This document shows, one piece after another, positions 1,089 through 49,177 of a stretch of DNA of 64,000 nucleotides (position 1 is the stretch's first letter; the number at the start of each line of letters is the position of its first letter). Under the pieces are notes generated by a model. That model was not told where the DNA came from. It saw nothing but the letters and a program-made list of their open reading frames with translations, and did no database searches. The DNA comes from an uncultured Clostridia bacterium (GTDB lineage: Bacteria; Bacillota; Clostridia; Oscillospirales; Acutalibacteraceae): NCBI GenBank assembly GCA_944384855.1, contig CALWUY010000041.1, positions 1,786 through 65,785 on the forward strand, read 5' to 3'. The position numbers were made by a program, and so were the translations under genes.

Positions 1089-1661
1089 ATGAAAAAGGAA
1101 GTATTAGTTGAAATTTCTGCCCGTCATGTTCATCTTTCACGCGAGCATCTCGATATCCTTTTCGGAAAAGGATATGAGCTGACAAACAAGAAAAATCTTT
1201 CACAGCCGGGACAGTTTGCATGTGAAGAAAAAGTCACGGTTGTCGGAAGCAAGAGCTCGCTGAAGGCTTCGATATTAGGACCGGTACGCTCAAAAACCCA
1301 GGTAGAGCTTTCTCTTACCGACGCGCGTTCAATAGGCGTAACCGCTCCGATAAGAGAATCGGGTGACATAAAGGGAAGCGGCGCCTGTAAAATTATAGGC
1401 CCGCAGGGAGAAATAGAAATTACCGAAGGTGTAATCGCCGCCAAAAGACATGTACATATGACTGTTGCCGACGGTGAAAAATACGGCATTAAAGACAAAC
1501 AGATTTTAACCGTTAAAATTCCCACAGCGGACAGATCCCTTATTTTCGGCGATGTTGTAGCCAGAGTAAGTGATAAATATGCGCTGGCTATGCATATTGA
1601 TACCGACGAGGCAAACGCGGCGCTCGTTCCGGGAAGCTGCATAGGTGAAATCCTTGACTGA
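1089..1661 (+). CDS. pduL: PduL-type phosphate acyltransferase with no N-terminal extension
   Basis: Two PduL repeats are visible (EISARHVHLS..., AAKRHVHM...) plus the QPGQFAC motif. GGAG lies upstream of the ATG. It is a paralog of 14318..14962. Confidence 0.85.
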   Translation: MKKEVLVEISARHVHLSREHLDILFGKGYELTNKKNLSQPGQFACEEKVTVVGSKSSLKASILGPVRSKTQVELSLTDARSIGVTAPIRESGDIKGSGACKIIGPQGEIEITEGVIAAKRHVHMTVADGEKYGIKDKQILTVKIPTADRSLIFGDVVARVSDKYALAMHIDTDEANAALVPGSCIGEILD

Positions 1662-4403: not shown

Positions 4404-5918
4404 ATGAGTTTAAATATATATCCTCTGACCGAGATTGAATATTCCTGTAAAAATTATAATATAAAAATCAACGGTATTGATGCAACGCCTGATACAGCGA
4501 GAGTTTCCGCAAAGCCTTATAACAGACGCTGGCCGGGACATCAGCGTACGCTTGACCAGACTGAACTTGTAAACTTTATATCACTTTCCGCGGATGAACC
4601 TTTGGATTTTGAAATTACGCCTGCAGAAAAATTCGAAAAAGTTGAAATAAGGCCCGCATCTTTAGGAATTATCCCTGAAGTAAAGGATGGAGTTATTCGC
4701 TTCAAATTGGAAAAACCGGCCTATTTCACGGTAGAGCCTTATTCCAGGCATAACGCGCTGCATATTTTTGTCGACCCGGTATCGGACTATGATATTAATT
4801 TTAAAAACGAAAATGTCATTTATTACGGCAGGGGCATTCACGAAGCCGGTATGATCACGCTTAAAAGCAATCAGACATTGTTTATCGACGAGGGTGCTGT
4901 GGTTTATGCCTGCGTCAGCGCTGCCGACGCTGAAAATATTAAAATTTTAGGCAGAGGCATTTTGGACAACAGTCATAATAAAGCCGAAATTTTATTTGAA
5001 GCGAATGCCGAAGATAACAAATCGGCAATAAACAATGCCAGGCGCATACATACCATTCAGCTTGAATACTGTAAAAATGTCTGTATTGAGGGCATTACCA
5101 TAAGAGATTCTTTGGTTTATAATATTCGTCCCATAGGCTGTGAAAACTTTTCTGTTAAAAACGTAAAGCTAATCGGAAACTGGCGGTACAATTCTGACGG
5201 AATTGATATGCACAACTGCGTTAATGTTGATATTGATAATTGCTTCATACGCACATTTGACGATTGTATTTGCGTTAAAGGATTCGACTGCTACTACGAA
5301 GGCGATGTCGAAGAACAGGTTAAAAACGCAATGTACCGCAACGGGAAAAAATACGATATATTCAGAAATGTCCGTGTACATAACTGTACTATATGGAACG
5401 ACTGGGGAAAATGTCTTGAAATCGGCGCTGAGACCCGTGCCGAAGAAATATTTGATATTGTATTTGAAAACTGCGATATAATTCATGTTCAGGGCGCGCC
5501 TCTCGACTGTTACAATATCGACTATGCCGATGTGCACGACATTATTTACCGCAATATCAATATTCAATATGACGATGTCAATCCGCAAGCGGTTTATCAG
5601 TATAAAAACAATGAAAAATATGAAAATTTAGTAAATGATTACAACAGCTTTCCTCCTCTTATCCGTGTAGATGTAAGCTACCATTTTGAATATTCCGCGT
5701 CAGGCGCTAAAAGGGGAAAAAATCATGATATAATATTTGAAAACATACATCTTTCAGCCAGACAGCCTGTTAAAATCGAGTTTTACGGTTATGACTCGGA
5801 ACACAAGACAAAAAATGTTACAGTCAAGGATTTATATTACAACGGTAAAAAAATCACTGAGCTGCCGAAAGAATACTTCGTAAAGAACGAATTCTGCGAA
5901 AATATTAAGCTTATTTAA
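4404..5918 (+). CDS. glycoside hydrolase family 28-like protein (right-handed beta-helix, polygalacturonase/rhamnogalacturonase-like)
   Basis: NSDGIDMHNC (NTDG-like) followed by FIRTFDDCICVK (DD motif). The periodic I/V-x-N pattern is typical of pectin-lyase-fold proteins. Confidence 0.6.
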   Translation: MSLNIYPLTEIEYSCKNYNIKINGIDATPDTARVSAKPYNRRWPGHQRTLDQTELVNFISLSADEPLDFEITPAEKFEKVEIRPASLGIIPEVKDGVIRFKLEKPAYFTVEPYSRHNALHIFVDPVSDYDINFKNENVIYYGRGIHEAGMITLKSNQTLFIDEGAVVYACVSAADAENIKILGRGILDNSHNKAEILFEANAEDNKSAINNARRIHTIQLEYCKNVCIEGITIRDSLVYNIRPIGCENFSVKNVKLIGNWRYNSDGIDMHNCVNVDIDNCFIRTFDDCICVKGFDCYYEGDVEEQVKNAMYRNGKKYDIFRNVRVHNCTIWNDWGKCLEIGAETRAEEIFDIVFENCDIIHVQGAPLDCYNIDYADVHDIIYRNINIQYDDVNPQAVYQYKNNEKYENLVNDYNSFPPLIRVDVSYHFEYSASGAKRGKNHDIIFENIHLSARQPVKIEFYGYDSEHKTKNVTVKDLYYNGKKITELPKEYFVKNEFCENIKLI

Positions 5919-7559: not shown

Positions 7560-8390
7560 TTATTCCTTATCGTTTAAATATTCAATATATTCCTCCAGAC
7601 ACATATCAAGCCTGTTTATTTCCCTCGCCGTATCAATTCCGACAAACCGCCAGTGCCAAGGTTCGCTGATTACACCCGTAATTTCCTGCTTGTCCTCAGT
7701 ATAACGCAGTATAAACCCATAATCTTCTGCGTTTTCCGTTAACCATTTATACGCGTCGGTCGTTTTAAACGAATCCTGAACCGAATTTATATCCAACGCA
7801 AGACCCGTGTGATGCTCGCTGGTTCCCGGACGCGCCACTACAGTAGCCGCTTCCTTTTCCGCCGCAGCCCTGTCAAGTCCTTTGTCCATCTCCCTCTGCA
7901 CCTGAGCGTTATACAGCTGCTCCTGTGTCTCATACGAACGATATGGTGACCATACCCCTATATCTATACCTTCTGCCCTGGCATCATCAAGCATTGCTTT
8001 GAGATAAGGCCACATATTCTTATCGATTTGAGTGAGCGAACCTTTTATATACTCCTGAGGAATCGTAGTCAGGTTTCTCTCGTAATCATAATCTTCAGGC
8101 AAAGGATTGTTTCCGTTCACAAGCAGCAGCTCACTGTATTCTGTGTCAAAGGTCGCCGCGCTGCCCGCTCCAGGCTCTACCGGATCCGGTTCCACGTCAC
8201 TCTGTTCAGACATATCCTGAGAAGATATTTCCGAGGAGCTCTGATTCTGAGTGTCGTTATCACTGTCTTTTGAAAATACCGATACCAATGTGAATATTAT
8301 AACTGACGCTACAAGTATAAAAATCACCGTAAATAATCCGATATATATTCTTCTTAACATTATACGCCTTTTTCTTTCTCTTCTATCCAT
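7560..8390 (-). CDS. D-alanyl-D-alanine carboxypeptidase, VanY / peptidase M15B family, membrane anchored
   Basis: SEHHTGLALDI and EPWHWRF zinc-site motifs, with an N-terminal TM helix. The ATG at 8390 follows AGAGGTAG. The track start at 8411 would overlap lepA. Confidence 0.8.
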   Translation of the reverse strand: MDRRERKRRIMLRRIYIGLFTVIFILVASVIIFTLVSVFSKDSDNDTQNQSSSEISSQDMSEQSDVEPDPVEPGAGSAATFDTEYSELLLVNGNNPLPEDYDYERNLTTIPQEYIKGSLTQIDKNMWPYLKAMLDDARAEGIDIGVWSPYRSYETQEQLYNAQVQREMDKGLDRAAAEKEAATVVARPGTSEHHTGLALDINSVQDSFKTTDAYKWLTENAEDYGFILRYTEDKQEITGVISEPWHWRFVGIDTAREINRLDMCLEEYIEYLNDKE

Positions 8391-8400
8391 ATTTCTACCT

Positions 8401-10206
8401 CTATTCGTCAAGTTTCAATACTGCCATAAACGCTTCCTGAGGTACTTCTACCGTTCCGAGTTTCCTCATGCGCTTTTTGCCTTCCTTCTGTTTTTCAAGA
8501 AGCTTTTTCTTACGTGTAATATCTCCGCCGTAACACTTCGCGAGCACGTCTTTACGCAGTGCCTTAACCGTTTCCCTGGCGATTATTTTACCGGAAACCG
8601 CAACCTGAACAGGCACTTCAAACAACTGTCTCGGAATATATTCCTTTAGCTTTTCGGCAATTTTACGCGCCCGGTTATACGCGTTATCCGAATAAACTAT
8701 AAATGAAAGCGCGTCTACAATATCTCCCGCCAGCATTACGTCAAGTTTTACAAGCTTTGATTTTTCATAGCCTTTCATTTCATAGTCATAGCTTGCGTAA
8801 CCTTTTGTCCTGGATTTAAGCGCGTCAAAAAAGTCATACACTATCTCTCCCATAGGCATTATATAGTGTATATCAACACGGTCTCCCATATACTTCATAT
8901 CGGTATAGATCCCGCGTCTTTCTTCGCAAAGCTGCATAATGGTGCCTACGTAATCGCTCGGACTGTAAATATGCACGTCCGCCACAGGCTCGAGCGCTTC
9001 GGCTATAACGGCAGGATCGGGATAATTTGTAGGATTGTCCACCGTTACGGTTTCTCCTGTCGTCAAAACAAATTTATATTCCACACTCGGAGCAGTTGTT
9101 ACAAGATCAAGATTGTATTCCCTTTCAAGCCTTTCCTGTATTATCTCCATGTGTAAAAGGCCCAAAAATCCGCACCGAAAGCCGAATCCCAGCGCATTTG
9201 AGCTTTCCGGCTCAAAAAGCAGTGAAGCATCATTGAGCTGAAGCTTGTCCAATGCCTCGCGCAAATCAGGATATTTGGCGCCGTCAGCCGGATAAATTCC
9301 GCAGAATACCACCGGATTTACCTTTCTGTAACCGTCAAGCGCCTTTTCCGCCGGACATTCGGCCAACGTGACAGTATCTCCTACCCGTGCTTCGCTCACT
9401 GTCTTTATCGACGCCGAAAGATATCCTACCTCTCCCGCTTCCAGAACATCACACTGTTCTAAGCTCGTAGCCCTTTTTCTGCCGATTTCCACAATGTCAA
9501 ATTCCGCTCCGGTCGCCATCATTCTGATACGGTCACCGGTTTTTATTTTTCCGCTTACTACTCTGAAATAAACCACAACGCCTTTATACGGATCGTAATA
9601 CGAATCGAATATCAGCGCAGTAAGCGGAGCGTTTCTGTCTCCCTTGGGAGCCGGAAACTCCGTTACTATCTTTTCTAAGACTTCTTCTATATTGATTCCC
9701 GTCTTTGCAGATATCATCGGAGCGTTATCTGCAGGAATGCCGATTATATCCTCTATTTCGGCTTTTACCCTCTCAGGTTCAGCCGACGGAAGATCTATCT
9801 TATTTATCACCGGCAGAATTTCAAGTCCGTGATCAACCGCAAGATATGTGTTTGCCAGCGTCTGAGCCTCGATTCCCTGTGAGGCATCAACTATCAGCAC
9901 TGCTCCCTCACAGGCCGCAAGCGCCCTTGAGACTTCATAGTTAAAATCGACATGTCCCGGAGTATCTATCAGATTAAGTTCATATTCAAGTCCGTCAGCC
10001 GCGGTATAATAAAGCGTTACCGCATGAGCCTTAATTGTAATGCCGCGCTCTCTCTCAAGATCCATACTGTCAAGTATCTGATCCTCCATATCGCGCTCCG
10101 ACACGGATTTGGTAAGTTCCAGCAGTCTGTCTGCGAGAGTGGATTTGCCATGGTCAATATGTGCTACAATACAAAAATTTCTTATCCTGTCAAGCGGAAA
10201 CGACAT
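8401..10206 (-). CDS. lepA: translation elongation factor 4 (LepA)
   Basis: [23 protein letters not shown]1 motif, [13 protein letters not shown] and the characteristic LepA C-terminal domain. 601 aa. Confidence 0.97.
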
Positions 10207-13247: not shown

Positions 13248-14162
13248 TTATAATAAGTAGCTCGGCATTTCCCGCATGTCTGTTTTTTTAGACACAGCCG
13301 GCGTTTCACGGTTCTTGGTTCTAACGGCAGGCTTATCATGATTAACATTCCTTCGGACACTGTACTCTTTGGGCGAAATCCCGCTTATACGCTTAAATGC
13401 CGCCGAAAAATAATTTTGATTATTGAATCCTGTAATCTCGGCTGTTTTGGTTACACTTACACCGCTTTTAAGCAGTTTTTTTGCTTCTTTAATTTTTATT
13501 TCCATAAAATATTCATGCACTCCCGAATTTGTGAAAAGCGCGAATATCCTTTTCAAATGTGACAGACTTATTTCCAGTTTATCCGCCAAATCACCAATTG
13601 AAAGCCTGCCGTTGACACACGTTTCCATTTCTTTTACAGCTTCACCGAACAAAAGTGCATCACGCGACTGAACGGGCGGAATTTTTTTTGAATTTGCCTC
13701 AACTTCCATAATTAAAAGTTCAAGTTTTAAGCTCAGAATGGCAGCGGCGTTATAATCAGCCTTTGAAAACTCAGACAAAATAACATTGTATTCACAGATG
13801 TTTTCAATTGTTCCCGACATACTGAGCAGAAGCTGTTTCTGAAATATATTAAGTTCTGCTGCGGTGCTGTTATATCCCTGCGGATCGGTACTGTCAGTTT
13901 CAGCCGCGGCAAACATATATTCTGTATCGGTATCCGGAACAAGACCTACAAAATGTATTTCGCCGGGCGCGAACACCGCTCCGGTACCCGCTGTGCATAT
14001 AAACGTTTTATCCGCGTATGTTACCTTAAGTTTACCCGAATTTACAAATACTGCTTCAAAATGCTCTTTTGCACCGTTCAAAAAATTTTCCGGTATACTG
14101 TTTTTCATTACAGCAGATGCTGTAATTTTTTTTAACCTCGGAACTTCTCTGTATTCTGTCAA
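13248..14162 (-). CDS. AraC family transcriptional regulator (cupin-like N-domain plus HTH)
   Basis: C-terminal AraC HTH (LADKLEISLSHLKRIF...ITGFNNQNYFSAAFKRISGISPKEY). It lies directly downstream of the BMC operon on the same strand. Confidence 0.85.
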   Translation of the reverse strand: MTEYREVPRLKKITASAVMKNSIPENFLNGAKEHFEAVFVNSGKLKVTYADKTFICTAGTGAVFAPGEIHFVGLVPDTDTEYMFAAAETDSTDPQGYNSTAAELNIFQKQLLLSMSGTIENICEYNVILSEFSKADYNAAAILSLKLELLIMEVEANSKKIPPVQSRDALLFGEAVKEMETCVNGRLSIGDLADKLEISLSHLKRIFALFTNSGVHEYFMEIKIKEAKKLLKSGVSVTKTAEITGFNNQNYFSAAFKRISGISPKEYSVRRNVNHDKPAVRTKNRETPAVSKKTDMREMPSYLL

Positions 14163-14269
14163 GCCGGCACTCCCTTTCCTGAGCTTATATTGTATATTTT
14201 GATGAAATTTAGCATCTATATATATTTTTTTATAATTATAACACTAATTTATTAAAATGTAAAGAAAAA

Positions 14270-14298
14270 CACGGCGTATGAAAAATTCATACGCCGTG
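14270..14298. terminator. intrinsic terminator ending the BMC operon
   Basis: cacggcgtatg-aaaaatt-catacgccgtg, with an A-run before and a T-run after. Confidence 0.85.
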
Positions 14299-14317
14299 TT
14301 TTTTACAGCTGCACTAA

Positions 14318-14962
14318 TTAACGAATGATCCTGACCTTTGCGCCGTTTCCTATTCCGGCTGCATTGGCATCGTCCGTATCTATATGCATTTCAAGTCTGA
14401 AGGCTTTGCTTACCCTTATCTGAACATCATAAAATGTCGTTCTTCTCTCACCGTCAGCTTCAACTGTTACAGTATCGCCGTCCTTAAGACCAAATAATTC
14501 GCCTTCTTCTTCGCTCATATGTATATGTCTGTTCGCAATTATACAGCCCTCTTTAAGCGATACTATTCCTTTGGGACCGACAATCGTAATCGGCGCCGAC
14601 CCTTTAATATCTCCTGATTCGCGTACAGGCGGTTTTACTTTGAGTGTGAAAGAGTCTGTACGGGAAATCTCCACCTGAGAACTTGACCTTATAGGACCGA
14701 GTACACGCACTCCCTCAATAGCTCTCAGCGATGGTCCTATGAGCGTAAGCTGCTCCTTGCATGCAAACTGACCCGGCTGTGACAGATCCTTAACAGGCGT
14801 AAGTTCATATCCTTTTCCGAACAGAGTTTCCAAATCCTGCTGTGAAAGATGTATGTGCCTGTTCGACACACCTACAGGTACTGTATCATCACAGGAATTT
14901 TCATCAATATTCATAATTACACGCTTAACTATATCCGTGATTAAAGAAGCATCAAATTCCAT
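14318..14962 (-). CDS. pduL: PduL phosphate acyltransferase with an N-terminal encapsulation-peptide-like extension
   Basis: PduL repeats (VSNRHIHLSQ..., IANRHIHMSE...) and QPGQFAC. It has about 28 extra N-terminal residues (MEFDASLITDIVKRVIMNIDENS) that the paralog at 1089 lacks. Confidence 0.9.
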   Translation of the reverse strand: MEFDASLITDIVKRVIMNIDENSCDDTVPVGVSNRHIHLSQQDLETLFGKGYELTPVKDLSQPGQFACKEQLTLIGPSLRAIEGVRVLGPIRSSSQVEISRTDSFTLKVKPPVRESGDIKGSAPITIVGPKGIVSLKEGCIIANRHIHMSEEEGELFGLKDGDTVTVEADGERRTTFYDVQIRVSKAFRLEMHIDTDDANAAGIGNGAKVRIIR

Positions 14963-15071
14963 ATTGCTCTACTCCTTAATATGTTAAAAGTTATAGTGCC
15001 GGATCCCTGATACAAACAAAACGGCAATTAAAACAACCTATTATACATATTTTATAATTATAATTTTTATC

Positions 15072-15350
15072 CTAAACTACAAGTCCCGTACCGCTGTCTA
15101 CAATGCCCACAATAGCTTTGTCAATAGGAGCAAATTCCTTTCCACATCCTATGCGCGCCGCACTTCCGGTAGCCACAAGCACCATTTCACCGATGCCTGC
15201 TCCGACATTGTCTACAGCAACGAAACGCTGGGCAGCTGTACCGAATTCAGCGATAGGCTCAACTATCATGAGTTTCATACCTATCAATTTTTCATTTTTT
15301 CTTGTAGCTACAACACTTCCCACTACATTGCCGATAATCAACTGCCTCAC
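15072..15350 (-). CDS. BMC vertex (pentamer) protein, EutN/CcmL/PduN family (BMC-P)
   Basis: 92 aa. IGNVVGSVVATRKNEKLIGMKLMIV...AVDNVGAGIGEMVLV is typical of Pfam EutN_CcmL. Confidence 0.9.
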   Translation of the reverse strand: MRQLIIGNVVGSVVATRKNEKLIGMKLMIVEPIAEFGTAAQRFVAVDNVGAGIGEMVLVATGSAARIGCGKEFAPIDKAIVGIVDSGTGLVV

Positions 15351-15372
15351 CTTGCTCTCACTGATACTTTAA

Positions 15373-15400
15373 ATTGGGAGGCTGTGTCAGGCCTCCCAAT
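15373..15400 (-). promoter_or_regulatory. intercistronic GC-rich stem-loop between the BMC-H and BMC-P genes
   Basis: attgggaggc-tgtgtcag-gcctcccaat, a 10-bp perfect stem in the 66-nt gap. Only a weak U-tract follows on the transcribed strand. Confidence 0.6.
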
Positions 15401-15416
15401 AACTTCAAAAATCCGA

Positions 15417-15695
15417 TTATTTGAGTGTGGGAAGAATCTTCTCAACATCCTCATGCGGACGCGGAATTACATGTGTGGCTATAATTTCTCCCAGCTTCGA
15501 AGCCATGGCAGAACCCGCTTCAACCGCTGACTTTACCGCTCCTACGTCTCCGCGAACCATTACGCTTACAAGTCCAGATCCTATTTTTTCAGTACCTATA
15601 AGCTGAACATTCGCCGCTTTAAGCATAGCATCTGCAGCTTCAATTGCCGCTACCAGACCTCTGGTTTCTATCATTCCCAATGCTTCAAGTGCCAT
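15417..15695 (-). CDS. BMC shell hexamer protein (BMC-H, PduA/EutM-like), copy 2
   Basis: [30 protein letters not shown]...[19 protein letters not shown]...VIPRPH is close to PduA. Confidence 0.95.
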
Positions 15696-15723
15696 CTTTC
15701 TGCCCTCCGGTTGTGATTACTGA

Positions 15724-16002
15724 TTATTTCAATACAGGTAAAATTTTCTCGACATCTTCATGCGGACGCGGAATTACATGTGTGGCTATAAGCTCTCCCA
15801 GCTTTGAAGCCATGGCAGAACCCGCTTCAACCGCTGATTTTACTGCTCCTACATCTCCGCGTACCATTACGCTTACAAGTCCTGATCCGATTTTTTCAGT
15901 ACCGATAAGCTGAACATTTGCAGCTTTTACCATTGCATCCGCTGCTTCAATTGCCGCTACCAGACCTCTGGTTTCTATCATTCCCAATGCTTCAAGTGCC
16001 AT
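15724..16002 (-). CDS. BMC shell hexamer protein (BMC-H, PduA/EutM-like), copy 1
   Basis: 89 of 92 residues are identical to the adjacent copy, with the same PduA-like motifs. Confidence 0.95.
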
Positions 16003-16026
16003 CTTTAATTTCTCCTTTAAAGGTTT

Positions 16027-16503
16027 TTATAAATTTTCAAAAAACTTTTTTCCGTATGCCGCCAAGGCAGTATCCTGTTCTTCGCTTCCCCCGCTGACAC
16101 CGAGTCCGCCTATTATATTGCCCTGCTTATCGCATAACGGCTCTCCGCCGCCGAAAATTACAATTTTGCCCTGATTTGTAAATTGTATTCCGTAAAGCGG
16201 TCCGCCCGGCTGCGCCAGTGGTTTTAATTCTGATGTTGACATTTTAAGAGAAACAACGGTAAACGCCTTTTGAACCGCAACATCGTAACTTGCAATATAG
16301 GAATCATCCGCGCATTCAACTAATATGGGAGGCTGCGCAGCACGGTTAGATACCGCCACTACCGCTTTTACTCCCATTTCTTTTGCTTTGGCATGAACCG
16401 CACTGCTTAGTGTCTGCGCTTCACTGAGCGTAATATTTCTCGGGGATCCTCCCAATTCGCGTGTTACCTGATCCACAATAGAACGTATTTCCTGCTCGTC
16501 CAT
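16027..16503 (-). CDS. DUF336 (GlcG/HbpS/PduO-C-terminal-like) protein with an N-terminal encapsulation-peptide-like helix
   Basis: The core ...GGPLYGIQFTNQGKIVIFGGGEPL...GGLGVSGGSEEQD is typical of DUF336. The N-terminus is MDEQEIRSIVDQVTRELGG. Confidence 0.8.
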   Translation of the reverse strand: MDEQEIRSIVDQVTRELGGSPRNITLSEAQTLSSAVHAKAKEMGVKAVVAVSNRAAQPPILVECADDSYIASYDVAVQKAFTVVSLKMSTSELKPLAQPGGPLYGIQFTNQGKIVIFGGGEPLCDKQGNIIGGLGVSGGSEEQDTALAAYGKKFFENL

Positions 16504-16514
16504 TGTTTTTACCT

Positions 16515-17327
16515 TTATTTGCCTATCTGCTCAATTACGCGGCGTGTTATCTCACTTACAAGGTCGCTGTTATCTGACTTTGCGCTGTTTGCGCAATCGC
16601 CCTTGCAATTATTGCCGCAGCCATGACAGCTCGGCTTACCGCTTTGAGCATTGGGACAAAGATCAGCCGGATGCTTACCTTTCATACCAAACTTACGGCG
16701 GATTTCATAAAGACGCTGAACCTGTGCCTCGGATAACTCTTTTGGACCGCCGAGCTGCTTTGATATATAAAGAAGTTTAGCATAAAACTCAACTGATTCC
16801 ATCTTATGATACGCATTGAGCAGTGAATCCGAGTAAGAAAGAGCCCCATGGTTTTCAAGAAGTACCGCATCAAAATACTGTAAATACTTTGATACCGCAT
16901 CAGGTATCTCTTCGGTAGAAGGAGTACCGTATTCGGCAATCGGAACACATCCCAAAGCTATTACAGCTTCAGGCATAATGGGCTGGGTAAGCGGAATTCC
17001 GGCAATTGCAAAACCGGTAGCGTACATGGGATGAGCATGTACAACCGCATTTACATCCGGACGCTCCTTATATACACGCATATGCATCTTGATTTCTGAA
17101 GAAGGTTTAAACCCGGCATTTGCCTGAATTACATTGCCGTTGCGGTCTACCTTACAAATGTATTCAGGTGTCATAAAGCCCTTGCTGACACCTGTAGGCG
17201 TGCAGAGAAATTCGTTATCATTCAGTTTTACCGATATGTTACCGTCATTTGAGGCTACCATTCCTCTGTCATAAATGCGCTTTCCGATTTCACATATCTG
17301 CTTTTTAATTTGATATTCATTAACCAT
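16515..17327 (-). CDS. class II (zinc) aldolase/adducin family protein (fuculose-/rhamnulose-1-phosphate aldolase-like) with a Cys-rich linker and a C-terminal encapsulation-peptide-like helix
   Basis: SSEIKMH (Glu), HAHPMYATG (His-x-His) and LENHGALS (third His). About 55 extra residues at the C-terminus: CPNAQSGKPSCHGCGNNCKGDC...SDLVSEITRRVIEQIGK. Confidence 0.85.
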   Translation of the reverse strand: MVNEYQIKKQICEIGKRIYDRGMVASNDGNISVKLNDNEFLCTPTGVSKGFMTPEYICKVDRNGNVIQANAGFKPSSEIKMHMRVYKERPDVNAVVHAHPMYATGFAIAGIPLTQPIMPEAVIALGCVPIAEYGTPSTEEIPDAVSKYLQYFDAVLLENHGALSYSDSLLNAYHKMESVEFYAKLLYISKQLGGPKELSEAQVQRLYEIRRKFGMKGKHPADLCPNAQSGKPSCHGCGNNCKGDCANSAKSDNSDLVSEITRRVIEQIGK

Positions 17328-17386
17328 TTGACTTTCTCCTTTTCTGTATTTTGTTTTATTTTGTTTTTTCTCTGTTTTATGGTATC

Positions 17387-17415
17387 ATTGTATCACATTG
17401 TTTTATAAAAGTCAA
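17387..17415 (-). promoter_or_regulatory. sigma-A promoter of the BMC operon with an extended -10 and an upstream A-tract
   Basis: On the minus strand: TTGACT (17415-17410), 17-nt spacer, TGaTACAAT (-10 at 17392-17387). About 70 nt of A-rich sequence lie upstream (17420-17490), consistent with an UP element. Confidence 0.7.
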
Positions 17416-17494
17416 CATAAAATCTTTATTTTTTCTTTGTTTTTTTGTTTTTTGTTGGTTTTGTATTGGTTTTTTATTTTTTCGCAGACAAAAA

Positions 17495-17545: not shown

Positions 17546-18118
17546 TTAATGGCTGAATCCCAGATCAAAAGCTTTTTTGTTCATTTCAATAAATTTGGGC
17601 GCGACGGTTTTTTCTATTGCGGTTATCCATTTATCGTAAGGTATATCAAAATGCTTTGCCGCTTTACCCATAAGTACAATGTTAACCGCTTTGGATGACC
17701 CGGCCTGCTCAGCAAGCGAAAGCGCGTCAAGCGCTTCCACTTTGAGTCCCTTGGCAGTAAGCTGACTGAGTACGTCTTCCGGATACTGTGCCGCTCCTAT
17801 AATAACCGGCATCGGATCTATCTGCTGGGTATTTACAACTATGACTCCGTCTCTTTTAAGATATTTGGAATATCTTGCAGCCTCAAGCTTTTCAAAGGAA
17901 ATTATAAAGTCGGCTTCCGATTCGGTAACTATAGGCGAATATACCTTATCCCCGTATCTTACATAAGTTACAACGGAACCACCTCTTTGGCTCATACCGT
18001 GAACCTCACTTACCTTTACATCATAACCTTCGTCAAGCAAAAGCCTTCCGAGCAATTTTGATGCAAGCAGACTTCCCTGTCCTCCTACACCGACTATCAT
18101 AACACTTTTAGTATTCAT
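17546..18118 (-). CDS. iorB: indolepyruvate:ferredoxin oxidoreductase, beta subunit
   Basis: MIVGVGGQGSLLASKLLG motif. The ATG at 18118 follows GAGGAGG. The track start at 18148 would overlap iorA. Confidence 0.85.
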   Translation of the reverse strand: MNTKSVMIVGVGGQGSLLASKLLGRLLLDEGYDVKVSEVHGMSQRGGSVVTYVRYGDKVYSPIVTESEADFIISFEKLEAARYSKYLKRDGVIVVNTQQIDPMPVIIGAAQYPEDVLSQLTAKGLKVEALDALSLAEQAGSSKAVNIVLMGKAAKHFDIPYDKWITAIEKTVAPKFIEMNKKAFDLGFSH

Positions 18119-18131
18119 GATCACTGCCTCC

Positions 18132-19856
18132 TCACACGATAGCGTCAAATGCGCAGAGCTGCTTGCAAACTGAACAGCCTACACAAAGGGTATTGTCGAT
18201 TTTTGCCTTGCCGTCTTTAAGGCTTATTGCCGGACATCCAAGTCCCATACATCTTTTACAGGACCTGCATTTATCGGTTTCCACCTTAAGCGGAGCTTCG
18301 TGTTTTACATATTTAAGCAGTACACAAGGTCTGCGGGAAATTATAACCGAAGGCTCATCCGCCGCCAACTCTTCCTTCACCGCGGTTTCGCAGGCGCTCA
18401 GATCATACGGGTCGACAACCCTTACCCTGTTTATTCCGAGCGAACGGCAAAGCTCCTCTAAATTAACCTTAGCCGCAGGATCGCCTTTTATGTTGTAACC
18501 GGTAGTGGGGTTCTGCTGATGACCGGTCATACCGGTAATCGAGTTGTCAAGAATTATTACCGTGGAATTTGTGGCATTGTACGCTACGTTTACAAGCCCT
18601 GTCATTCCGGAGTGCATGAATGTGGAGTCTCCTATTACGGCAACCGACTTTTTCTCGGTTTCTTCACGCCTTGCGGCGTTGAATCCGTGCAGACCTGAAA
18701 CCGATGCTCCCATACACAGCGTCGAATCAAGAGCGTTAAGCGGAGGCACCGCGCCTAAAGTATAACATCCTATATCGCCGTGAACCGTAATTCTATTTTT
18801 TGCCAGTACATAAAACATTCCTCTGTGAGGACATCCTGCGCACATCATAGGCGGACGTGCCGGGATATCCGAATCGGCAGTAATTCCCTGTACGGTTTCC
18901 CTGCCGAATACTTTGGCAACGGTTTGCTGTGAAAATTCTCCCAAGGCAGAGAACAGCTCTTTGCCTATACAATCTATTCCGAGCGAACGAACGTGAGTTT
19001 CTATAACCGGATCAAGTTCTTCTATTACATATAATTTTTTCACCTTTGCGGCAAAATCCTTAATAAGCTTTACGGGCAGTGGATTCGGCATTCCGATTTT
19101 AAGTATACTTGCCTTGTCACCCATAACTTCCTTAACATATAAATAAGAACATCCGGAGGTTATGATTCCTATTTCCGAAGAATTCATTTCCACACGGTTA
19201 TAAATGCAGTCTTCGGCGAATTCCCTCAGCGCCTGAGTCCTGGCCTCTACCACCGGATGCCGCTTTACTGCGTTGCCCGGCATCATTATGTACTTTGCAG
19301 GATTTTTCACATACTCCTTTAAAACCGCCGGTGTTTTTTCTCCGGTTTCAACAACTGACTGGCTGTGGGCTATACGGGTACACATTCGCAGAATTACCGG
19401 CGTATCGTACTTTTCAGAAAGCTCAAAAGCAGATTTCGCAAACTCATAGGCTTCTGCCGAATCCGAAGGCTCAAGCATGGGAACCTTGGCGGCAATAGCA
19501 TAATGTCTTGAATCCTGTTCGTTCTGGGACGAATGCATAGCGGGGTCATCTGCGACACAGATTACCATACCGCCGTTGACTCCTGTATAAGAGAGGGTGA
19601 ACAGCGGATCTGCCGCAACATTCAAACCTACATGCTTCATCGCGCATGCCGAACGTGCTCCTGCAAGGCTTGCTCCGAACGCGACCTCACACGCTACCTT
19701 TTCATTAGGCGCCCATTCACTGTGTATGTCGTTATATTCCGACAAAAATTCTGTTATTTCAGTAGAAGGCGTACCGGGATAACTTGAAACTACACCCAAT
19801 CCGCCGTCATAAAGACCGGCCGCTACCGCGCGGTTACCTATCATTAGCTCTTTCAT
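18132..19856 (-). CDS. iorA: indolepyruvate:ferredoxin oxidoreductase, alpha subunit (TPP and 2x[4Fe-4S])
   Basis: TPP-binding GDSTFMHSG and C-terminal ferredoxin motifs CRSCKRCMGLGCP / CVGCSVCKQLC. 574 aa. Confidence 0.88.
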   Translation of the reverse strand: MKELMIGNRAVAAGLYDGGLGVVSSYPGTPSTEITEFLSEYNDIHSEWAPNEKVACEVAFGASLAGARSACAMKHVGLNVAADPLFTLSYTGVNGGMVICVADDPAMHSSQNEQDSRHYAIAAKVPMLEPSDSAEAYEFAKSAFELSEKYDTPVILRMCTRIAHSQSVVETGEKTPAVLKEYVKNPAKYIMMPGNAVKRHPVVEARTQALREFAEDCIYNRVEMNSSEIGIITSGCSYLYVKEVMGDKASILKIGMPNPLPVKLIKDFAAKVKKLYVIEELDPVIETHVRSLGIDCIGKELFSALGEFSQQTVAKVFGRETVQGITADSDIPARPPMMCAGCPHRGMFYVLAKNRITVHGDIGCYTLGAVPPLNALDSTLCMGASVSGLHGFNAARREETEKKSVAVIGDSTFMHSGMTGLVNVAYNATNSTVIILDNSITGMTGHQQNPTTGYNIKGDPAAKVNLEELCRSLGINRVRVVDPYDLSACETAVKEELAADEPSVIISRRPCVLLKYVKHEAPLKVETDKCRSCKRCMGLGCPAISLKDGKAKIDNTLCVGCSVCKQLCAFDAIV

Positions 19857-19897
19857 TGCTTTTTTCCTTTCCCTTATATTATAATACCTTAACCGGT

Positions 19898-21535
19898 TTA
19901 AGATTTGTTCTGCGATGCTACCAATTCTTCCGCTCCGTAAATCTTTCTGAGCTTCGGCTTTTCTATCTTACCCGTAGCGTTGCGCGGTACATCGGCAAAA
20001 ATTATCTTCCGCGGACGTTTATATCTGGGTAAATCCAGACAAAATTCATTTATTTCCGCTTCAGTGCACTCCACACCGTCTTTGAGCTTTATAATAGCGG
20101 CAGCTATTTCTCCGAGCCTCTTGTCCGGGAGTCCTATAACCGCAACATCGCTCACTTTAGGATATGCCGCCAAAAAATTCTCTATCTGAACCGGATAAAG
20201 GTTTTCTCCTCCGCTTATTATAACATCCTTTTTTCTGTCAACAAGGTAAATGAAACCGTCTTCATCCTGCATGGCCATATCACCTGTATAAAGCCACCCG
20301 TCTTTCAGAGTCTCAGCCGTCGCTTTTTCGTCGCGGTAATAGCATGTCATTACACCCAGACCCTTAAGACACAGTTCTCCTACCCTGCCCTGCGTTACCT
20401 CTTTGCCTTCGGTATCTACGATTTTAACCTGCCATCCGTATCCCGGTATGCCGATTGCCCCTACCTTGTGCGTGTTTTCAACTCCCAAATGCACAGCGCC
20501 GGGTCCTATGGATTCAGAAAGCCCGTAATTTGTGTCATACTGCTGATTAGGGAATATTTCAAGCCATTTCTTAATCAGACTCTGAGGTACCGGCTGCGCT
20601 CCGATATGCATAAGCCTCCAATGAGACAGATCATAGTCTTCAAGCTTTATTTCTCCCCGCTCAATTGCATTCAGAATATCCTGTGCCCACGGGACAAGCA
20701 GCCATACTATCGTACATTTCTCCCTGCTTGCGGATTCTATTATATTTTTAGGCTGTGCGCCTTTAAGTATAACCGCCTTCGATCCTGAGATAAGACTGCC
20801 GAACCAATGCATTTTAGCGCCTGTATGGTACAGCGGAGGAATACATAAAAAACAGTCGTCCTTTGTCTGTCCGTGATGCTTCTGCTCTACGCGGCTTGAA
20901 TGTATGAGGCTTTCGTGATTATGTAATATTGCTTTCGGGAAACCTGTCGTTCCGGAAGAAAAATAAATTGCTGCATCGTCGCTTTCCTTCAGCTCACATT
21001 CCGGGAAAGTGCCTGAACATTCAGATATTAAATCGTTATAATCTTCTGCGAATGCAGGACATCCCGCCCCTAAATATATAAGCACACGTTTTTTCCCTAT
21101 TTTGTTGGCTATGGCTTCAATCCGTCCTATAAACTCGGGTCCGAAAATCAATACGTCAACTTCTGCTAGGTCTACACAGTATTCTATTTCATCAGATGAA
21201 TATCTGAAATTAAGAGGCACTGCCAATGCTCCTACCTTTAATATACCGAAATAAATGGGCAGCCAGTCAATACAGTTCATAAGAAGTATCGCGACCTTTC
21301 GTCCCTTCCCTATTCCGTTGGCCTTAAGCATATTTGCACACCGGTTGGCCTTCTCGTTAAAAACCTCCCATGTGATTTCCCTGCGGTAATGAGGAACCCT
21401 TGCGGTAGGCTCCACAAGTTCAAATTCATTCCACGTCAGTCTTCTGGTTTCAGGCTGATCGGGATTTATTTCAATAAGCGATGTATCCTGCGGAAACTCC
21501 TTTGCGTTTCTCTCAAGCAAATGAACAATTGTCAT
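19898..21535 (-). CDS. AMP-dependent acyl-CoA synthetase/ligase
   Basis: Adenylate-forming motifs YFSSGTTGFPKA, YGLSE, GWLYTGD and GKIEKPKLR. Confidence 0.85.
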   Translation of the reverse strand: MTIVHLLERNAKEFPQDTSLIEINPDQPETRRLTWNEFELVEPTARVPHYRREITWEVFNEKANRCANMLKANGIGKGRKVAILLMNCIDWLPIYFGILKVGALAVPLNFRYSSDEIEYCVDLAEVDVLIFGPEFIGRIEAIANKIGKKRVLIYLGAGCPAFAEDYNDLISECSGTFPECELKESDDAAIYFSSGTTGFPKAILHNHESLIHSSRVEQKHHGQTKDDCFLCIPPLYHTGAKMHWFGSLISGSKAVILKGAQPKNIIESASREKCTIVWLLVPWAQDILNAIERGEIKLEDYDLSHWRLMHIGAQPVPQSLIKKWLEIFPNQQYDTNYGLSESIGPGAVHLGVENTHKVGAIGIPGYGWQVKIVDTEGKEVTQGRVGELCLKGLGVMTCYYRDEKATAETLKDGWLYTGDMAMQDEDGFIYLVDRKKDVIISGGENLYPVQIENFLAAYPKVSDVAVIGLPDKRLGEIAAAIIKLKDGVECTEAEINEFCLDLPRYKRPRKIIFADVPRNATGKIEKPKLRKIYGAEELVASQNKS

Positions 21536-43592: not shown

Positions 43593-46190
43593 TCAGAATG
43601 ATTCGAAGAGCAGTTTTCTAAGTGCTGTGAAGTCAAGTGCATTAAGCACGCCGTCAACCGCTTCGCCGGCCTCAGCAGCGTTTGCAAACCACTTGCCTTC
43701 GTTTCCTGCAAGAAGCTCTTTCTTTACATGGATAAGGTCAAGAATATTAACCGCATTATCTACATTGTAGTCGCCTGCTACGATATCGAAAGCCTGTGAT
43801 ACAGATGTTGCCGCGAGACTCTCAACACCGAATGTAACATCATAGGTGGTAGCCGGAACACCGCTGAAGAATATGTAGTAAACAGCTGCAGGATCGAACC
43901 ACTCGTTAGCAGTAAGTTCAGCCACTGGGATCTTAACCTGATTCCAGCCGAAGCTCAGATTTTCTAATGTATAGTAAGCGCTTGCTTGATCAAAAATATC
44001 GGGCATTTCAACGGGAGTTGCATTAAGATAGAATGTAAGGCTGCACTTAGCGGTTACATAGAGGTTCATTTCAATATAATCTATATCGGTCAAATCCATA
44101 GGTGTGGGAAGAAGTATCGGCTCAGTCGCATTCTGAACGTTGCCGGCAGCAGGTATCTTAACATTTTCATAACCGTTGAATCTGCTGATTACCTTTCCGG
44201 TATAAACCATATCGGCTTTTTCGGATTCCTGTACGGTAAGAGCAAAGTTGGTGAACGCAAACCGAATTTCAGCCGCGGTATCATTAAGAAGTGTACCGTC
44301 GAAGAAGAATCCTTTGATAGCCGAAACGTCAACGCCTTCCGCCAATTCCAGTTCACTGATCGGAAGCACTACATGATTCCAGCCGATTTCCATTTTAGAT
44401 GTATTTATCAATGCCGATGCCCTGTCGGTTGAAGTCCATGCAATAGCATCATTACCGAATCTGATAGCAATATCATTATCAGCCTTTGCACCGAGATATA
44501 CATCAAATTCTATAAAGTCACCTTTGTTAAAATCTATTGTCTTTGTGAAGTTGGTTTTATCAATATACCATGCGTAGTTTCCTACATAACCGTCGGCATC
44601 CCAGCGCATTTTTCCGCCTTCTACAAATGTTCCGTCGCCGCTGATTTCCGGATGAGTTGTAGCTTCAAAATACTCGCTGCGCGGATAAGGCGAGAATTTG
44701 GTGCAGGCAACATTAGCAACCTTAAAGGTAATTGCGTCACTCGAACTCGGTGTGCCTTCAAAGAAGTAGCCGCTCCATGAAGTGAGATCGGCAATCTTGA
44801 AGCCGCTTCCGGAACCCGCGTAATCATTTATTACATCGATTACAACATGATGCCAGCCCGCAGTTTCAAGCTTCGGGAAGGTCCAGAATCCGCGTACCGC
44901 AGCTTTGTCTGTATGTGTATGGAACAGTATGCTGCTTTCCATAGGAGCAGAAACATAAACATCCATCTCAATATAATCAACATCGGTCATGTCAACAGGG
45001 TCAAACTGATTCCATAACTGATATTTATCATACATATTTGAACCTGCAGGAACAGTATTACCGCCAACTGAATTAACAGGTGCTATACCGTCAACAGCCA
45101 TATCAACTAAGAAGTGTTCATTGTTCATATCCGGATAACTCTTTGTAACGCCGAAGTTTGCTATTCCCACAGTAAGCTCAACGCCGGGGGCGTTAGGATC
45201 GCCTTCAAGGAAGAGTGAAGTGAGATTTTCCTTACGGAATGTACCTTCAGTGATTGCAACCTTTGTTAAATCAACAACCACGTGATTCCACTGTCCCGGA
45301 GTGAGTGTGCTAAGAGTAACATTGTATCTCGCACGACCGGTTTCTTCAGTTGCATAATCGAAATCATTACACAGCCAGATTCCCATATCCTGCATCTCTG
45401 CGGAAATCCAGATATCAAACTCAAGGAATTCGGCAGATGTAGTATCCATTGCGTCCGCCAGACCCATGAACAGGCGCGCGTCTGCTCCGTAAATCGGATC
45501 TACATATATATTTGTTACGTCACCTTGCCAATATTTTTCAAATACTGAGTTATCATAATCTATAGCAATATTTTCATAGGTTTCGCCGGCTACAGGAGCT
45601 TCAGGAACCTCAGCAGGTCCTACAGGTTCCGGATCAGGACCAGGATCAGGTTCACCAGCGGACTCATCATTCGTGAAAGCAAGGTTTGCCATAGCGAATT
45701 CTACAGAATTTACATCAGAATCAACAGGCTGCACATTGGTGTTGTACACATAGAACGCGTTAAGCGCAGAAGTATCGTATGGGGCTTCCGGAGTTTCCAA
45801 ATTGCCTTGGTCATTTCCTATAACTGACATAGGAATACAAATGTGATTCCAGCCTGCATTCAAGGCGGGAAGTTTTGTACCTTTGCGTCCGGGACCATCG
45901 CCGCTGCCGCTGGTAACAATAAGCGTAGTTTCCGGCATCGCCGTGCTTGCATACATATCAAATTCAAGATATTCCGCCTCAGATACATCGATAGTACCGG
46001 ATTCGTTATCTGTCGGGAATTCATAATAGAATACACCGCCCCAGCTCATGCTCCAATCCATGGTACTCTGACCTTTTGTATATGTGCGGCTGATAAATTT
46101 ACCATTTTGCTCATATACGGTATTGGTATGGGTATTATCCATCAGCGGAGTTTCTCTTGTGAAGGCAAGATTTGCCATCTTCAGATTCAC
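43593..46190 (-). CDS. C-terminal 865-codon part of a repeat-module protein ending in a dockerin. It has no signal peptide of its own and continues ORF 46218..47195 in frame.
   Basis: Five to six modules of about 145 aa carry the recurring motifs YLEFD.Y.S and GWNHV. A Pro-rich linker is present. The C-terminal dockerin-like duplicated segment is GDYNVDNAVNILDLIHVKKELL / DGVLNALDFTALRKLLF. Confidence 0.75.
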   Translation of the reverse strand: MNLKMANLAFTRETPLMDNTHTNTVYEQNGKFISRTYTKGQSTMDWSMSWGGVFYYEFPTDNESGTIDVSEAEYLEFDMYASTAMPETTLIVTSGSGDGPGRKGTKLPALNAGWNHICIPMSVIGNDQGNLETPEAPYDTSALNAFYVYNTNVQPVDSDVNSVEFAMANLAFTNDESAGEPDPGPDPEPVGPAEVPEAPVAGETYENIAIDYDNSVFEKYWQGDVTNIYVDPIYGADARLFMGLADAMDTTSAEFLEFDIWISAEMQDMGIWLCNDFDYATEETGRARYNVTLSTLTPGQWNHVVVDLTKVAITEGTFRKENLTSLFLEGDPNAPGVELTVGIANFGVTKSYPDMNNEHFLVDMAVDGIAPVNSVGGNTVPAGSNMYDKYQLWNQFDPVDMTDVDYIEMDVYVSAPMESSILFHTHTDKAAVRGFWTFPKLETAGWHHVVIDVINDYAGSGSGFKIADLTSWSGYFFEGTPSSSDAITFKVANVACTKFSPYPRSEYFEATTHPEISGDGTFVEGGKMRWDADGYVGNYAWYIDKTNFTKTIDFNKGDFIEFDVYLGAKADNDIAIRFGNDAIAWTSTDRASALINTSKMEIGWNHVVLPISELELAEGVDVSAIKGFFFDGTLLNDTAAEIRFAFTNFALTVQESEKADMVYTGKVISRFNGYENVKIPAAGNVQNATEPILLPTPMDLTDIDYIEMNLYVTAKCSLTFYLNATPVEMPDIFDQASAYYTLENLSFGWNQVKIPVAELTANEWFDPAAVYYIFFSGVPATTYDVTFGVESLAATSVSQAFDIVAGDYNVDNAVNILDLIHVKKELLAGNEGKWFANAAEAGEAVDGVLNALDFTALRKLLFESF

Positions 46191-47707: not shown

Positions 47708-49177
47708 ATGAAAAAAGTACTCTCTTTTGATTTCGGCGCCTCAAGTGGCAGAGCAATGCTTGCCACTTTTGAAGACGGAAAAATCAATATGGAAGAAATT
47801 CACCGTTTCAGCAACGATACAGTTATTGTAAACGGAACTATGTACTGGGATATTCTCAGATTGTTTTTTGAAGTGAAAACAAGTATTACAAACGCCGTAA
47901 ACAAAGGCGGATTTGACGCTATAGGAATAGATACCTGGGGTGTTGATTTCGGTCTTATTGACAAGCGGGGAAAACTGATAGGAAACCCTGTCCATTACCG
48001 TGACAAACGGACCGAAGGGATACCGGAAAAGGTTTTTAAAGAAATAATCAGCAAAGAGGAAATATACAAGCATACCGGAACTCAGTTTATGAGAATAAAC
48101 ACACTTTACCAGCTGATGTACCTCAAATACTGTGAGCCGGAAACGCTCGGCATGACAGATAAAATGATCCTTATGCCGGATTTGTTCGCATACATGCTCA
48201 CAGGTGAGATTCATGCGGAAGCGAGCATGGCCTCAACTACTAACCTGTATGATCCTTATAAACGCGACTGGGATTTTGAACTTATCAGAAAGCTGGGGCT
48301 TCCTGAAAGTATCTTTCCTCCAATAATCAAAGCAGGAAACATATACGGAATGCTCTCGGATGAAATCTGTGAGGAATTAGGCTGCAAAAAGGTTCCGGTT
48401 ATATCGGTCTGCGGTCATGATACCGCGAGCGCCGTGGCAGCAGTGCCCTCAGATACGGATGATTTTGTCTATATCAGCTGCGGCACATGGAGCCTTTTCG
48501 GCATAGAAACCAAAGAGCCTATCATAAACGACGAGGTTTCCGCCCTTAACTTTACAAATGAAGGCGGATTCAAAGACACAGTAAGATTCCTCAAAAATAT
48601 TATGGGACTTTGGCTTATACAAGAATCCCGCCGTCAATGGGCAAGAGAAGGCGAAAAGGTCGGTTTTGACGTTCTCGAAAAAGAAGCGCTGGCGGCCGAA
48701 CCTTTCAAGTGCTTTGTGGATGTTGACGACGCCTCCTTTGAATCTGCCGGAAATCTTCCGAAGCGCGTAAAAGAATACTGTGAAAGAACCGGTCAGTATG
48801 TTCCCCAAACCCGCGGTGAAATAATGAGATGTATTTACCAAAGCATTGCAATGAAATATAAATATACGTTTAATAAGCTTAACTCAGTGGGTGAAAACAA
48901 GTATACCCGCATCAATATGCTGGGCGGCGGTATTAAAGATACCCTGCTGTGCCGTATGACTTCTGACGCCTGCAACGCCGAAGTTCTGGCAGGTCCCACT
49001 GAAGCTACGGTAATGGGCAATATCGCGGTGGCATATTACGCTTTGGGAGAAATCAAGGATTTCACAGAAATACGCAAAACCGTATCCGCGTCTACCGATT
49101 TGAAACGCTATATGCCGCAGGATGCCCAGTCATGGGACAGCGCATATAAAGAATATCTCAGAGTTACCGGCCAGTAA
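47708..49177 (+). CDS. rhaB: rhamnulokinase (FGGY carbohydrate kinase family)
   Basis: FDFGASSGRAML..., HRFSN and YWDILRLF are typical of the RhaB N-terminus. The C-terminal FGGY motif GGGIKDTLLC is present. GGAGG lies upstream. Confidence 0.8.
   Translation: MKKVLSFDFGASSGRAMLATFEDGKINMEEIHRFSNDTVIVNGTMYWDILRLFFEVKTSITNAVNKGGFDAIGIDTWGVDFGLIDKRGKLIGNPVHYRDKRTEGIPEKVFKEIISKEEIYKHTGTQFMRINTLYQLMYLKYCEPETLGMTDKMILMPDLFAYMLTGEIHAEASMASTTNLYDPYKRDWDFELIRKLGLPESIFPPIIKAGNIYGMLSDEICEELGCKKVPVISVCGHDTASAVAAVPSDTDDFVYISCGTWSLFGIETKEPIINDEVSALNFTNEGGFKDTVRFLKNIMGLWLIQESRRQWAREGEKVGFDVLEKEALAAEPFKCFVDVDDASFESAGNLPKRVKEYCERTGQYVPQTRGEIMRCIYQSIAMKYKYTFNKLNSVGENKYTRINMLGGGIKDTLLCRMTSDACNAEVLAGPTEATVMGNIAVAYYALGEIKDFTEIRKTVSASTDLKRYMPQDAQSWDSAYKEYLRVTGQ

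Follow-up and report, generated by a model that had tools for sequence, protein, structure and literature searches.

A compact six-gene microcompartment cassette of an uncultured gut Clostridia bacterium, predicted to derive from the fucose/rhamnose GRM5 locus

Glycyl-radical-enzyme microcompartment type 5 (GRM5) is the fucose/rhamnose bacterial microcompartment (BMC) of Clostridium phytofermentans, Roseburia inulinivorans and Ruminococcus spp. A class II aldolase, the signature of PVM and PVM-like BMCs, is a co-signature of GRM5 (PMC4594438, PMC6325248), a DUF336 protein is a standard GRM5 component (PMC4207490), and a zinc-dependent alcohol dehydrogenase (Zn-ADH) together with the PduS/PduT pair was found in 57 of 57 GRM5 loci (PMC6325248). 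Encapsulation peptides (EPs) at the C-termini of BMC aldolases and at the N-termini of phosphotransacylases are also established (PMC4594438). Here we analyze a 64-kb stretch of contig CALWUY010000041.1 from an uncultured Clostridia bacterium (the window), which contains a compact BMC cassette of six intact minus-strand open reading frames (ORFs). These encode a class II aldolase, a DUF336 protein, two hexamer shell proteins (BMC-H), one pentamer shell protein (BMC-P) and a PduL-type phosphotransacylase, and lie between a promoter-like site and a strong terminator. Judged by gene order, protein identity and phylogeny, the cassette is a streamlined, vertically inherited, colinear deletion derivative of the fucose/rhamnose GRM5 of gut Clostridia, and we are highly confident that it represents a selected reduction of GRM5 origin. 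In the following, WIN designates the window's locus and L-numbers the other contigs and loci compared.

The aldolase family comprises more than 120 protein clusters at 81% identity or above. Its carriers, at least 569 species-representative genomes, are all uncultured gut Clostridia, for example Acutalibacteraceae and 'Aphodoplasma', and the best loci of these genomes provided 80 species-level relatives. Mapping of these 80 loci with Pfam and tblastn gave the order glycyl radical enzyme (GRE), activase, PduU-like BMC protein, PduV, aldolase, DUF336, Zn-ADH, three to five BMC-H, BMC-P, PduS, PduT, DeoR, (AckA), acylating aldehyde dehydrogenase (AldDH) and PduL, which is the GRM5 type of the literature (PMC4207490, PMC6325248). 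The GRE was present in 53 of the 60 loci whose upstream sequence reached 4.5 kb or more, and the AldDH in 36 of the 40 whose downstream sequence reached 9.5 kb or more. The six genes of the window form a colinear subset of this order, and colinearity was seen in all relatives. Their products share 67-93% amino acid identity with GRM5 loci of related Acutalibacteraceae and of other Clostridia metagenome-assembled genomes (MAGs), and 70-93% with those of the 80 relatives; the aldolase is 86-91% identical to the aldolases of GRM5 loci. Intermediate forms were also present among the loci compared. L016 is devoid of the GRE module only, L010 has neither GRE nor AldDH, and L013 has the PVM-like arrangement of aldolase, DUF336, shell genes, AckA, AldDH, PduL and AraC.

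GRM5 loci and the window locus have in common an aldolase with a C-terminal EP, a DUF336 protein and a PduL with N-terminal EPs, PduA-like BMC-H and BMC-P, all in identical order; the class II aldolase (PF00596) with its C-terminal EP and the DUF336 protein are orthologous to those of GRM5. In contrast to GRM5, the window locus has no GRE, activase, Zn-ADH, PduS/PduT, PduU-like protein, PduV, DeoR, AckA or AldDH, and an adjacent AraC gene stands in place of the internal DeoR gene. Reduction from such an ancestor would have removed the glycyl-radical 1,2-propanediol dehydratase with its activase, PduU-like and PduV proteins, the Zn-dependent lactaldehyde reductase, PduS, PduT, DeoR, acetate kinase and the acylating AldDH. 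It would have kept a shell of PduA-type hexamer and pentamer, the EP-tagged aldolase, DUF336, PduL, the operon's own promoter and the adjacent AraC gene. An earlier annotation of this DNA made from the sequence alone (the sequence-only reading) had described an operon with no known signature enzyme. That description was wrong, the class II aldolase being precisely such an enzyme, and the gene order, identities and tree likewise leave no place for independent invention of the cassette.

Genes absent from the window were sought with three Pfam scans of 30 ORFs (the operon, its neighbours and the great majority of ORFs of at least 300 aa) and with whole-window tblastn using GRM5 seed proteins from L088. 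Neither approach found an AldDH (PF00171), an Fe- or Zn-dependent alcohol dehydrogenase (ADH), a PFL/Gly_radical protein, a diol dehydratase, EutBC or a BMC-T protein anywhere in the 64 kb, confirming the cis absence of AldDH, ADH and GRE noted earlier. Specifically, a GRE (PF02901/PF01228) with its activase (PF04055) was found neither in the operon nor in the rest of the window, and the L088 seeds detected no Zn-ADH (PF00107/PF08240) and no PduS/PduT there. When the PduT seed was searched permissively, its sole matches were those of its BMC domains to the two BMC-H genes. The AldDH seed matched nothing in the window, nor in any of five further reduced loci. Of the canonical core of AldDH, phosphotransacylase and ADH encoded together, the operon contains PduL alone. 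Finally, tblastn with E-values up to 10 yielded only chance-level matches in intergenic regions, and hence no pseudogene remnants of the lost genes.

Other described BMC types resemble the locus in part. With two BMC-H genes and one BMC-P gene, it is a BMC main locus as defined by Sutter 2021 (at least one PF00936 BMC-H and at least one PF03319 BMC-P, contiguous). Like the PVM-like type (Axen 2014; Sutter 2021), it has an aldolase signature enzyme without a GRE and a Firmicutes host, and L013 is both of PVM-like type and a close relative; PVM-like loci contain an AldDH, however, which the window locus does not. The ACI BMC (Sutter 2021) similarly combines shell genes with an EP-tagged class II aldolase in its main locus, its AldDH being encoded on a distal satellite, whereas a distal AldDH for the window locus is hypothetical. 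ACI loci also differ in their Acidobacteria hosts, a BMC-P triplet, an aldolase of an unrelated clade and the lack of PduL and DUF336. The earlier suggestion that the operon might fall into a catalogued class of incomplete core or unknown function is correct to the extent that, having no AldDH in cis, it fits by naming rule the BUF class of Sutter 2021 (BMC loci without AldDh). It goes no further, as BUF1-3 have unrelated enzymes (amidohydrolases, methyltransferases) and the window locus is plainly GRM5-derived, with GRM5-homologous proteins and the core enzyme PduL. A match to a characterized BMC type was likewise only partial: origin and order are those of GRM5, but the gene set is not, with GRE and AldDH gone. 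We found no published description of an AldDH-less GRM5 derivative, a statement that does not cover the contents of the 'GRM5like' class (44 loci) of Sutter 2021.

Reduced cassettes recur in related genomes. L089 and L092 contain aldolase, DUF336, BMC-H, BMC-P, PduL and AraC genes in differing neighbourhoods, and L097 and L098 represent a close relative with flanks as in the window. L090 retains aldolase, DUF336, BMC-H and PduL without BMC-P or AraC, and L099 has the promoter, DUF336, two BMC-H, BMC-P, PduL and AraC but no aldolase. An AraC gene follows PduL on its 3' side in L089, L092, L097, L099, L010 and L013, in contrast to full GRM5 loci with their internal DeoR gene. In a tree of concatenated DUF336, BMC-H and PduL sequences, WIN, L097, L089, L092, L099 and L090 grouped as one clade in 99% of 500 bootstrap replicates, without a resolved sister group. 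DUF336 proteins of about 10 clusters, those of the clade, showed identities of 82-99%, compared with at most 77% for the thousands of others. This identity gap and the bootstrap support together argue for a single inherited reduction. A tree of the aldolase alone was set aside, since this protein is too conserved: matches at 89-91% identity come from full and reduced loci alike.

We next consider whether the reduced cassette is maintained. Within-species pN/pS was uninformative because divergence between the window and contigs L001-L008 amounts to only ~0.1%. Across the clade, nonsynonymous divergence (pN) was 0.03-0.14 and synonymous divergence (pS) 0.55-0.84, the latter saturated, giving dN/dS ratios of ~0.02-0.08 for the aldolase, DUF336, BMC-H, BMC-P and PduL. 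Among alignment columns with a conservation of at least 95% in non-reduced relatives, the clade's proteins differ at only 0-2, and PduL of WIN at none of 88. Relative-rate tests revealed no general acceleration, only mild gene-specific shifts in PduL of WIN, DUF336 of L099 and BMC-H of L090. The genes were removed cleanly, and the resulting junctions have proper ribosome-binding sites. Furthermore, the promoter element TGTTGACTTTT-17-TGTGnTAnAAT is kept in WIN, L097, L089, L090, L092, L099 and L010 despite the saturation of synonymous sites. Given the low dN/dS, the intact conserved residues and the conserved promoter, the cassette is, on this comparative evidence, functional and under long-term purifying selection on all retained genes.

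The three non-shell proteins carry terminal extensions that resemble EPs, as the sequence-only reading had proposed. In each protein the extension contains the most amphipathic 14-residue window (hydrophobic moment 0.67-0.73), and only 1-2% of shuffles of the 16-17-residue segments reached the observed moment. All three extensions fall outside the parts alignable to solved homologues, and their hydrophobic register is conserved family-wide in alignments of 42-88 orthologues; the aldolase pattern D.VaeIT..V..qlgK is one example. The EP pattern is retained on all three cargo proteins throughout the reduced clade. An EP is a terminal amphipathic helix of ~15-20 residues with a linker to the catalytic domain, and this architecture was found, although for the aldolase the helix appears only in a low-confidence model. 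AlphaFold2 predictions from shallow alignments placed a helix at aa 3-18 of the DUF336 protein, followed by a linker (whole-model pLDDT 67), so the expected helical structure was recovered for DUF336 and less securely for the aldolase. A second PduL-type phosphotransacylase in the window (1089-1661, + strand, 190 aa, PTAC 5e-78) offers an internal control. It is ~52% identical to the operon PduL, begins straight at the catalytic fold without an N-terminal extension, has a peak moment of 0.45 and is probably a housekeeping enzyme; its lack of an extension indicates that the extension of the operon PduL is an add-on.

Tagging of a DUF336 protein had been regarded as unusual, which proved incorrect. 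Besides DUF336 being a standard part of GRM5, the EP hidden Markov model file of Sutter 2021 already includes HMM03928Haemd_2_grm.GRM5, built from 77 sequences, whose consensus MNEQdIssaVk matches the MDEQEIRSIVD of the window protein. From these alignments, all three tags are inherited, already catalogued features that are predicted to target cargo.

Characterized or partly characterized members of the DUF336 family include HbpS, the direct formaldehyde sensor EfgA (PMC8153426) and PduO-C, located in the Pdu BMC, which binds both haem and corrinoids and is required for optimal use of 1,2-propanediol. Throughout the reduced clade, the invariant core consists of DUF336, BMC-H and PduL, even where dehydratase or aldolase is missing. 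Given that DUF336 stays tied to the shell and PduL in such loci, its role is probably not cofactor maintenance for a dehydratase. An aldehyde-related or an assembly-related role is compatible with this distribution.

We propose a working model in which the GRM5-derived cassette forms one module within a dispersed system. The cassette would still build a compartment, inside which the aldolase would split a deoxy-sugar phosphate, L-rhamnulose-1-phosphate or L-fuculose-1-phosphate, to dihydroxyacetone phosphate and L-lactaldehyde. Lactaldehyde would be handled as in PVM-like BMCs, with an acylating AldDH producing lactoyl-CoA; PduL would recycle CoA with formation of the acyl-phosphate, and a dehydrogenase would regenerate NAD+. 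The AldDH and any reductase would come from genes in another part of the genome, whether an orphan gene bearing an EP tag or members of a second BMC locus. Two observations lead to this proposal. Selection on an EP-tagged PduL implies that the shell lumen contains a partner forming acyl-CoA, and L099 (no aldolase) and L090 (no pentamer) are not self-sufficient yet intact, which points to more BMC genes elsewhere in these genomes. There are precedents: ACI BMCs invariably have their AldDh on a satellite, and fission of a main locus gave rise to some satellites (PMC8217296). The source of acyl-CoA for PduL, flagged as unexplained by the sequence-only reading, stands as a real question, made weightier by the purifying selection that keeps the AldDH-less state in several species.

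The genomic context would suit such a model. The window encodes a solitary rhamnulokinase-like FGGY kinase (47708-49177, + strand), whose score of 467 bits against the rhamnulokinase model falls just short of the curated cut-off (528). It also encodes a GH28 polygalacturonase/rhamnogalacturonase-like enzyme (4404-5918, + strand) and a dockerin/carbohydrate-binding-module protein (43593-46190, - strand). These genes suggest that the host is a pectin- or rhamnose-degrading fibrolytic organism with scattered rhamnose-pathway genes. The kinase gene and the AraC-type (RhaR/RhaS-like) regulator would also fit a rhamnose-type inducer.

For the full model, including a partner AldDH encoded elsewhere, we judge the chances to be even, and several points weigh against it. 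The searches of the 64-kb window and of the 9-10 kb around five other reduced cassettes found no AldDH, ADH or further shell gene, PVM-like loci are stated by Sutter 2021 to lack satellites, and the AldDH partner in trans is one that we purely infer. Shell assembly, encapsulation and the aldolase substrate are predicted from the genes, and the modelled aldolase helix (aa 253-267) comes from an unreliable structure (pLDDT 43). In addition, PduL of WIN has more lineage-specific changes than some relatives (18 versus 4 to 25 versus 7 with some outgroups), which could reflect an altered role. Another explanation is that the cassette is an autonomous, AldDH-free minimal microcompartment with a core of shell, DUF336 and PduL and with the aldolase as an optional module. 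Such a self-sufficient unit would confine lactaldehyde production, the aldehyde would be bound, acted on or sensed by DUF336, in the manner of EfgA and formaldehyde, and PduL would serve some purpose other than the recycling of CoA for an AldDH. In favour of this, strong purifying selection maintains the same five or six genes across several species and differing neighbourhoods, with no partner genes within 64 kb; EfgA binds formaldehyde directly (PMC8153426), and the 'main locus' definition asks for no shell genes beyond BMC-H and BMC-P. We nevertheless consider autonomy unlikely. The sole known reaction of PduL requires acyl-CoA, which none of the three cargo proteins makes, and no known chemistry joins an aldolase directly to a phosphotransacylase. 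Moreover, a self-sufficient unit should not tolerate the loss of the aldolase in L099 or of the pentamer in L090 with the remaining genes intact.

Those same losses, together with that of AraC in L090 and the disappearance of ten of ~16 ancestral genes, could instead be taken to mean that the cassette is a non-functional remnant, a decaying GRM5 stump caught before pseudogenization. The selection analysis has already largely refuted this idea, and we hold it to be very improbable: ORFs are intact in six lineages at dN/dS ~0.02-0.08 with saturated synonymous sites, changes at conserved columns number 0-2, the promoter is conserved, rates are not accelerated and the deletions left proper ribosome-binding sites at clean junctions. 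Independent and very recent reductions conflict with the monophyly recovered in 99% of bootstraps. A local source of acyl-CoA was also considered, in the form of the operon at 17546-21535 (- strand) directly 5' of the cassette, which encodes an AMP-binding acyl-CoA synthetase and the alpha and beta subunits of an indolepyruvate:ferredoxin-oxidoreductase-like enzyme (IOR). A 2-oxoacid:ferredoxin oxidoreductase does make acyl-CoA, and WIN, L097 and L090 share these three genes directly upstream of their cassettes. Their neighbourhood was not found in L089, L092 or L099, however, a hairpin terminator (17529-17490) and a separate promoter split the two units, and the IOR proteins have no terminal extensions. 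We rejected this operon as the acyl-CoA source and give the idea hardly any credence.

The reduced loci outline a natural series from full GRM5 through GRE-less PVM-like loci and the five- or six-gene cassette to forms without aldolase or pentamer, with strong selection throughout. If partners are encoded elsewhere, BMC systems of gut Clostridia would be genomically dispersed, and locus-based catalogues would mis-type such fragments. If no partners exist, the cassette would be a real exception to the metabolosome paradigm of AldDH, phosphotransacylase and ADH; an autonomous cassette would embody a new metabolosome logic in the smallest natural catabolic BMC operon. For BMC engineering, the locus could supply compact, naturally optimized shell genes and three targeting peptides.

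The features of the operon are collected in Table 1. ORF analysis, Pfam, matches to solved structures and scans for promoters and terminators agreed with the gene identities and operon boundaries given in the sequence-only reading. The closest solved structures to the aldolase are FucA enzymes (4c24, 5e-29, aa 6-215), and its Glu, His-x-His and later His motifs are all present; by homology it is an aldolase of the L-fuculose/rhamnulose-1-phosphate type, with its substrate predicted. The DUF336 protein is closest to OrfY (2a2l), EfgA (6bws) and PduO-C (5cx7), aligned from ~aa 19-24 on. PduL matches the R. palustris PduL structure 5cuo (2.4e-51) from aa 28 and has both RHIH motifs intact, BMC-H copy 1 matches the PduA structure 3ngk (1.4e-36), and the closest solved structure to BMC-P is the GRM-type pentamer 4i7a. 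The A-rich tract directly 5' of the -35 hexamer is conserved across the clade and may serve as an UP element or as an operator for AraC; in L099, this tract and the promoter are joined straight to the DUF336 gene. The AraC-family gene beyond the terminator is probably the regulator of the cassette.

Table 1. Features of the cassette and its adjacent regulator, in window coordinates.
Feature	Position	Strand	Evidence
Sigma-70-type promoter, TTGACT, 17-nt spacer, TG-extended TACAAT	17387..17415	-	Consensus scan, 10/12 with TG
Conserved A-rich tract directly 5' of -35 hexamer	17416..17482	-	Cross-species alignment
Class II (zinc) aldolase, 270 aa	16515..17327	-	Pfam Aldolase_II 2.8e-51, aa 10-186
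Cys/His-rich aldolase linker PADLCPNAQSGKPSCHGCGNNCKGDCA, aa 220-246	16590..16670	-	Conservation in homologues
Aldolase C-terminal EP-like amphipathic helix NSDLVSEITRRVIEQIGK	16518..16571	-	Top hydrophobic moment of protein
DUF336 / HbpS-like protein (PF03928), 158 aa	16027..16503	-	Pfam 1.7e-30, aa 24-151
DUF336 N-terminal EP-like helix DEQEIRSIVDQVTRELG	16450..16500	-	Top hydrophobic moment of protein; conserved in 75 orthologues
BMC-H copy 1, PduA-like hexamer shell protein, 92 aa	15724..16002	-	Pfam BMC ~1e-30
BMC-H copy 2, PduA-like hexamer shell protein, 92 aa	15417..15695	-	Pfam BMC ~1e-30
BMC-P pentamer (vertex) shell protein, 92 aa	15072..15350	-	Pfam EutN_CcmL 2e-28
PduL-type phosphotransacylase, 214 aa	14318..14962	-	Pfam PTAC 1e-79, aa 29-204
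PduL N-terminal EP, aa 5-20	14903-14950	-	Extension before aa-28 start of 5cuo alignment
Intrinsic terminator closing operon, 18-bp stem, 7 GC pairs, 3-nt loop, T-run	14265..14303	-	Hairpin scan
AraC-family regulator with own promoter (14263-14235, 11/12)	13248..14162	-	Pfam HTH_18, HTH_AraC, AraC_binding

Between its catalytic domain and the EP, the aldolase has a linker with the motif C-x9-C-H-x-C-x3-C plus one further variable Cys. C224, C234, H235, C237 and C241 are invariant among 44 homologues, and the motif is conserved over 88 loci including those of GRM5 type. An earlier survey called aldolase linkers unconserved, yet nevertheless listed 5.5% Cys. The motif may form a metal or Fe-S site.

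Several minor observations concern individual genes and loci. The two BMC-H copies of the window differ at 27 of 279 nucleotides and at only 3 amino acids, and a single copy is present in some same-species contigs (L002, L098), reflecting either polymorphism in copy number or a repeat collapsed during assembly. The AraC regulators of WIN and L097 (12352-13266) are only 77% identical, compared with 94-100% for flanking genes, and identity across the clade is 42-50%, which suggests fast evolution or allelic replacement. In one same-species contig (L001:9208-9782), the IOR-beta gene appears as two ORFs of 72 and 88 aa, probably through a frameshift or sequencing error. L013 contains a 499-aa ORF (7663-9162) between PduL and AraC that matches no Pfam or NCBIfam model and has no counterpart in the window. 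Two contigs of MAG JAZOAK01 (L048 and L053) each carry a GRM5-type aldolase locus; there may be two BMC loci in one genome or a strain-mixed bin, which bears on multi-locus BMC systems in this group. Finally, in one metagenome contig, genes for a MobC/NikA-like protein, a relaxase and a large serine recombinase (L093:1275-4423) lie immediately 5' of a complete GRM5 locus, a hint that GRM5 loci are able to travel on mobile elements.

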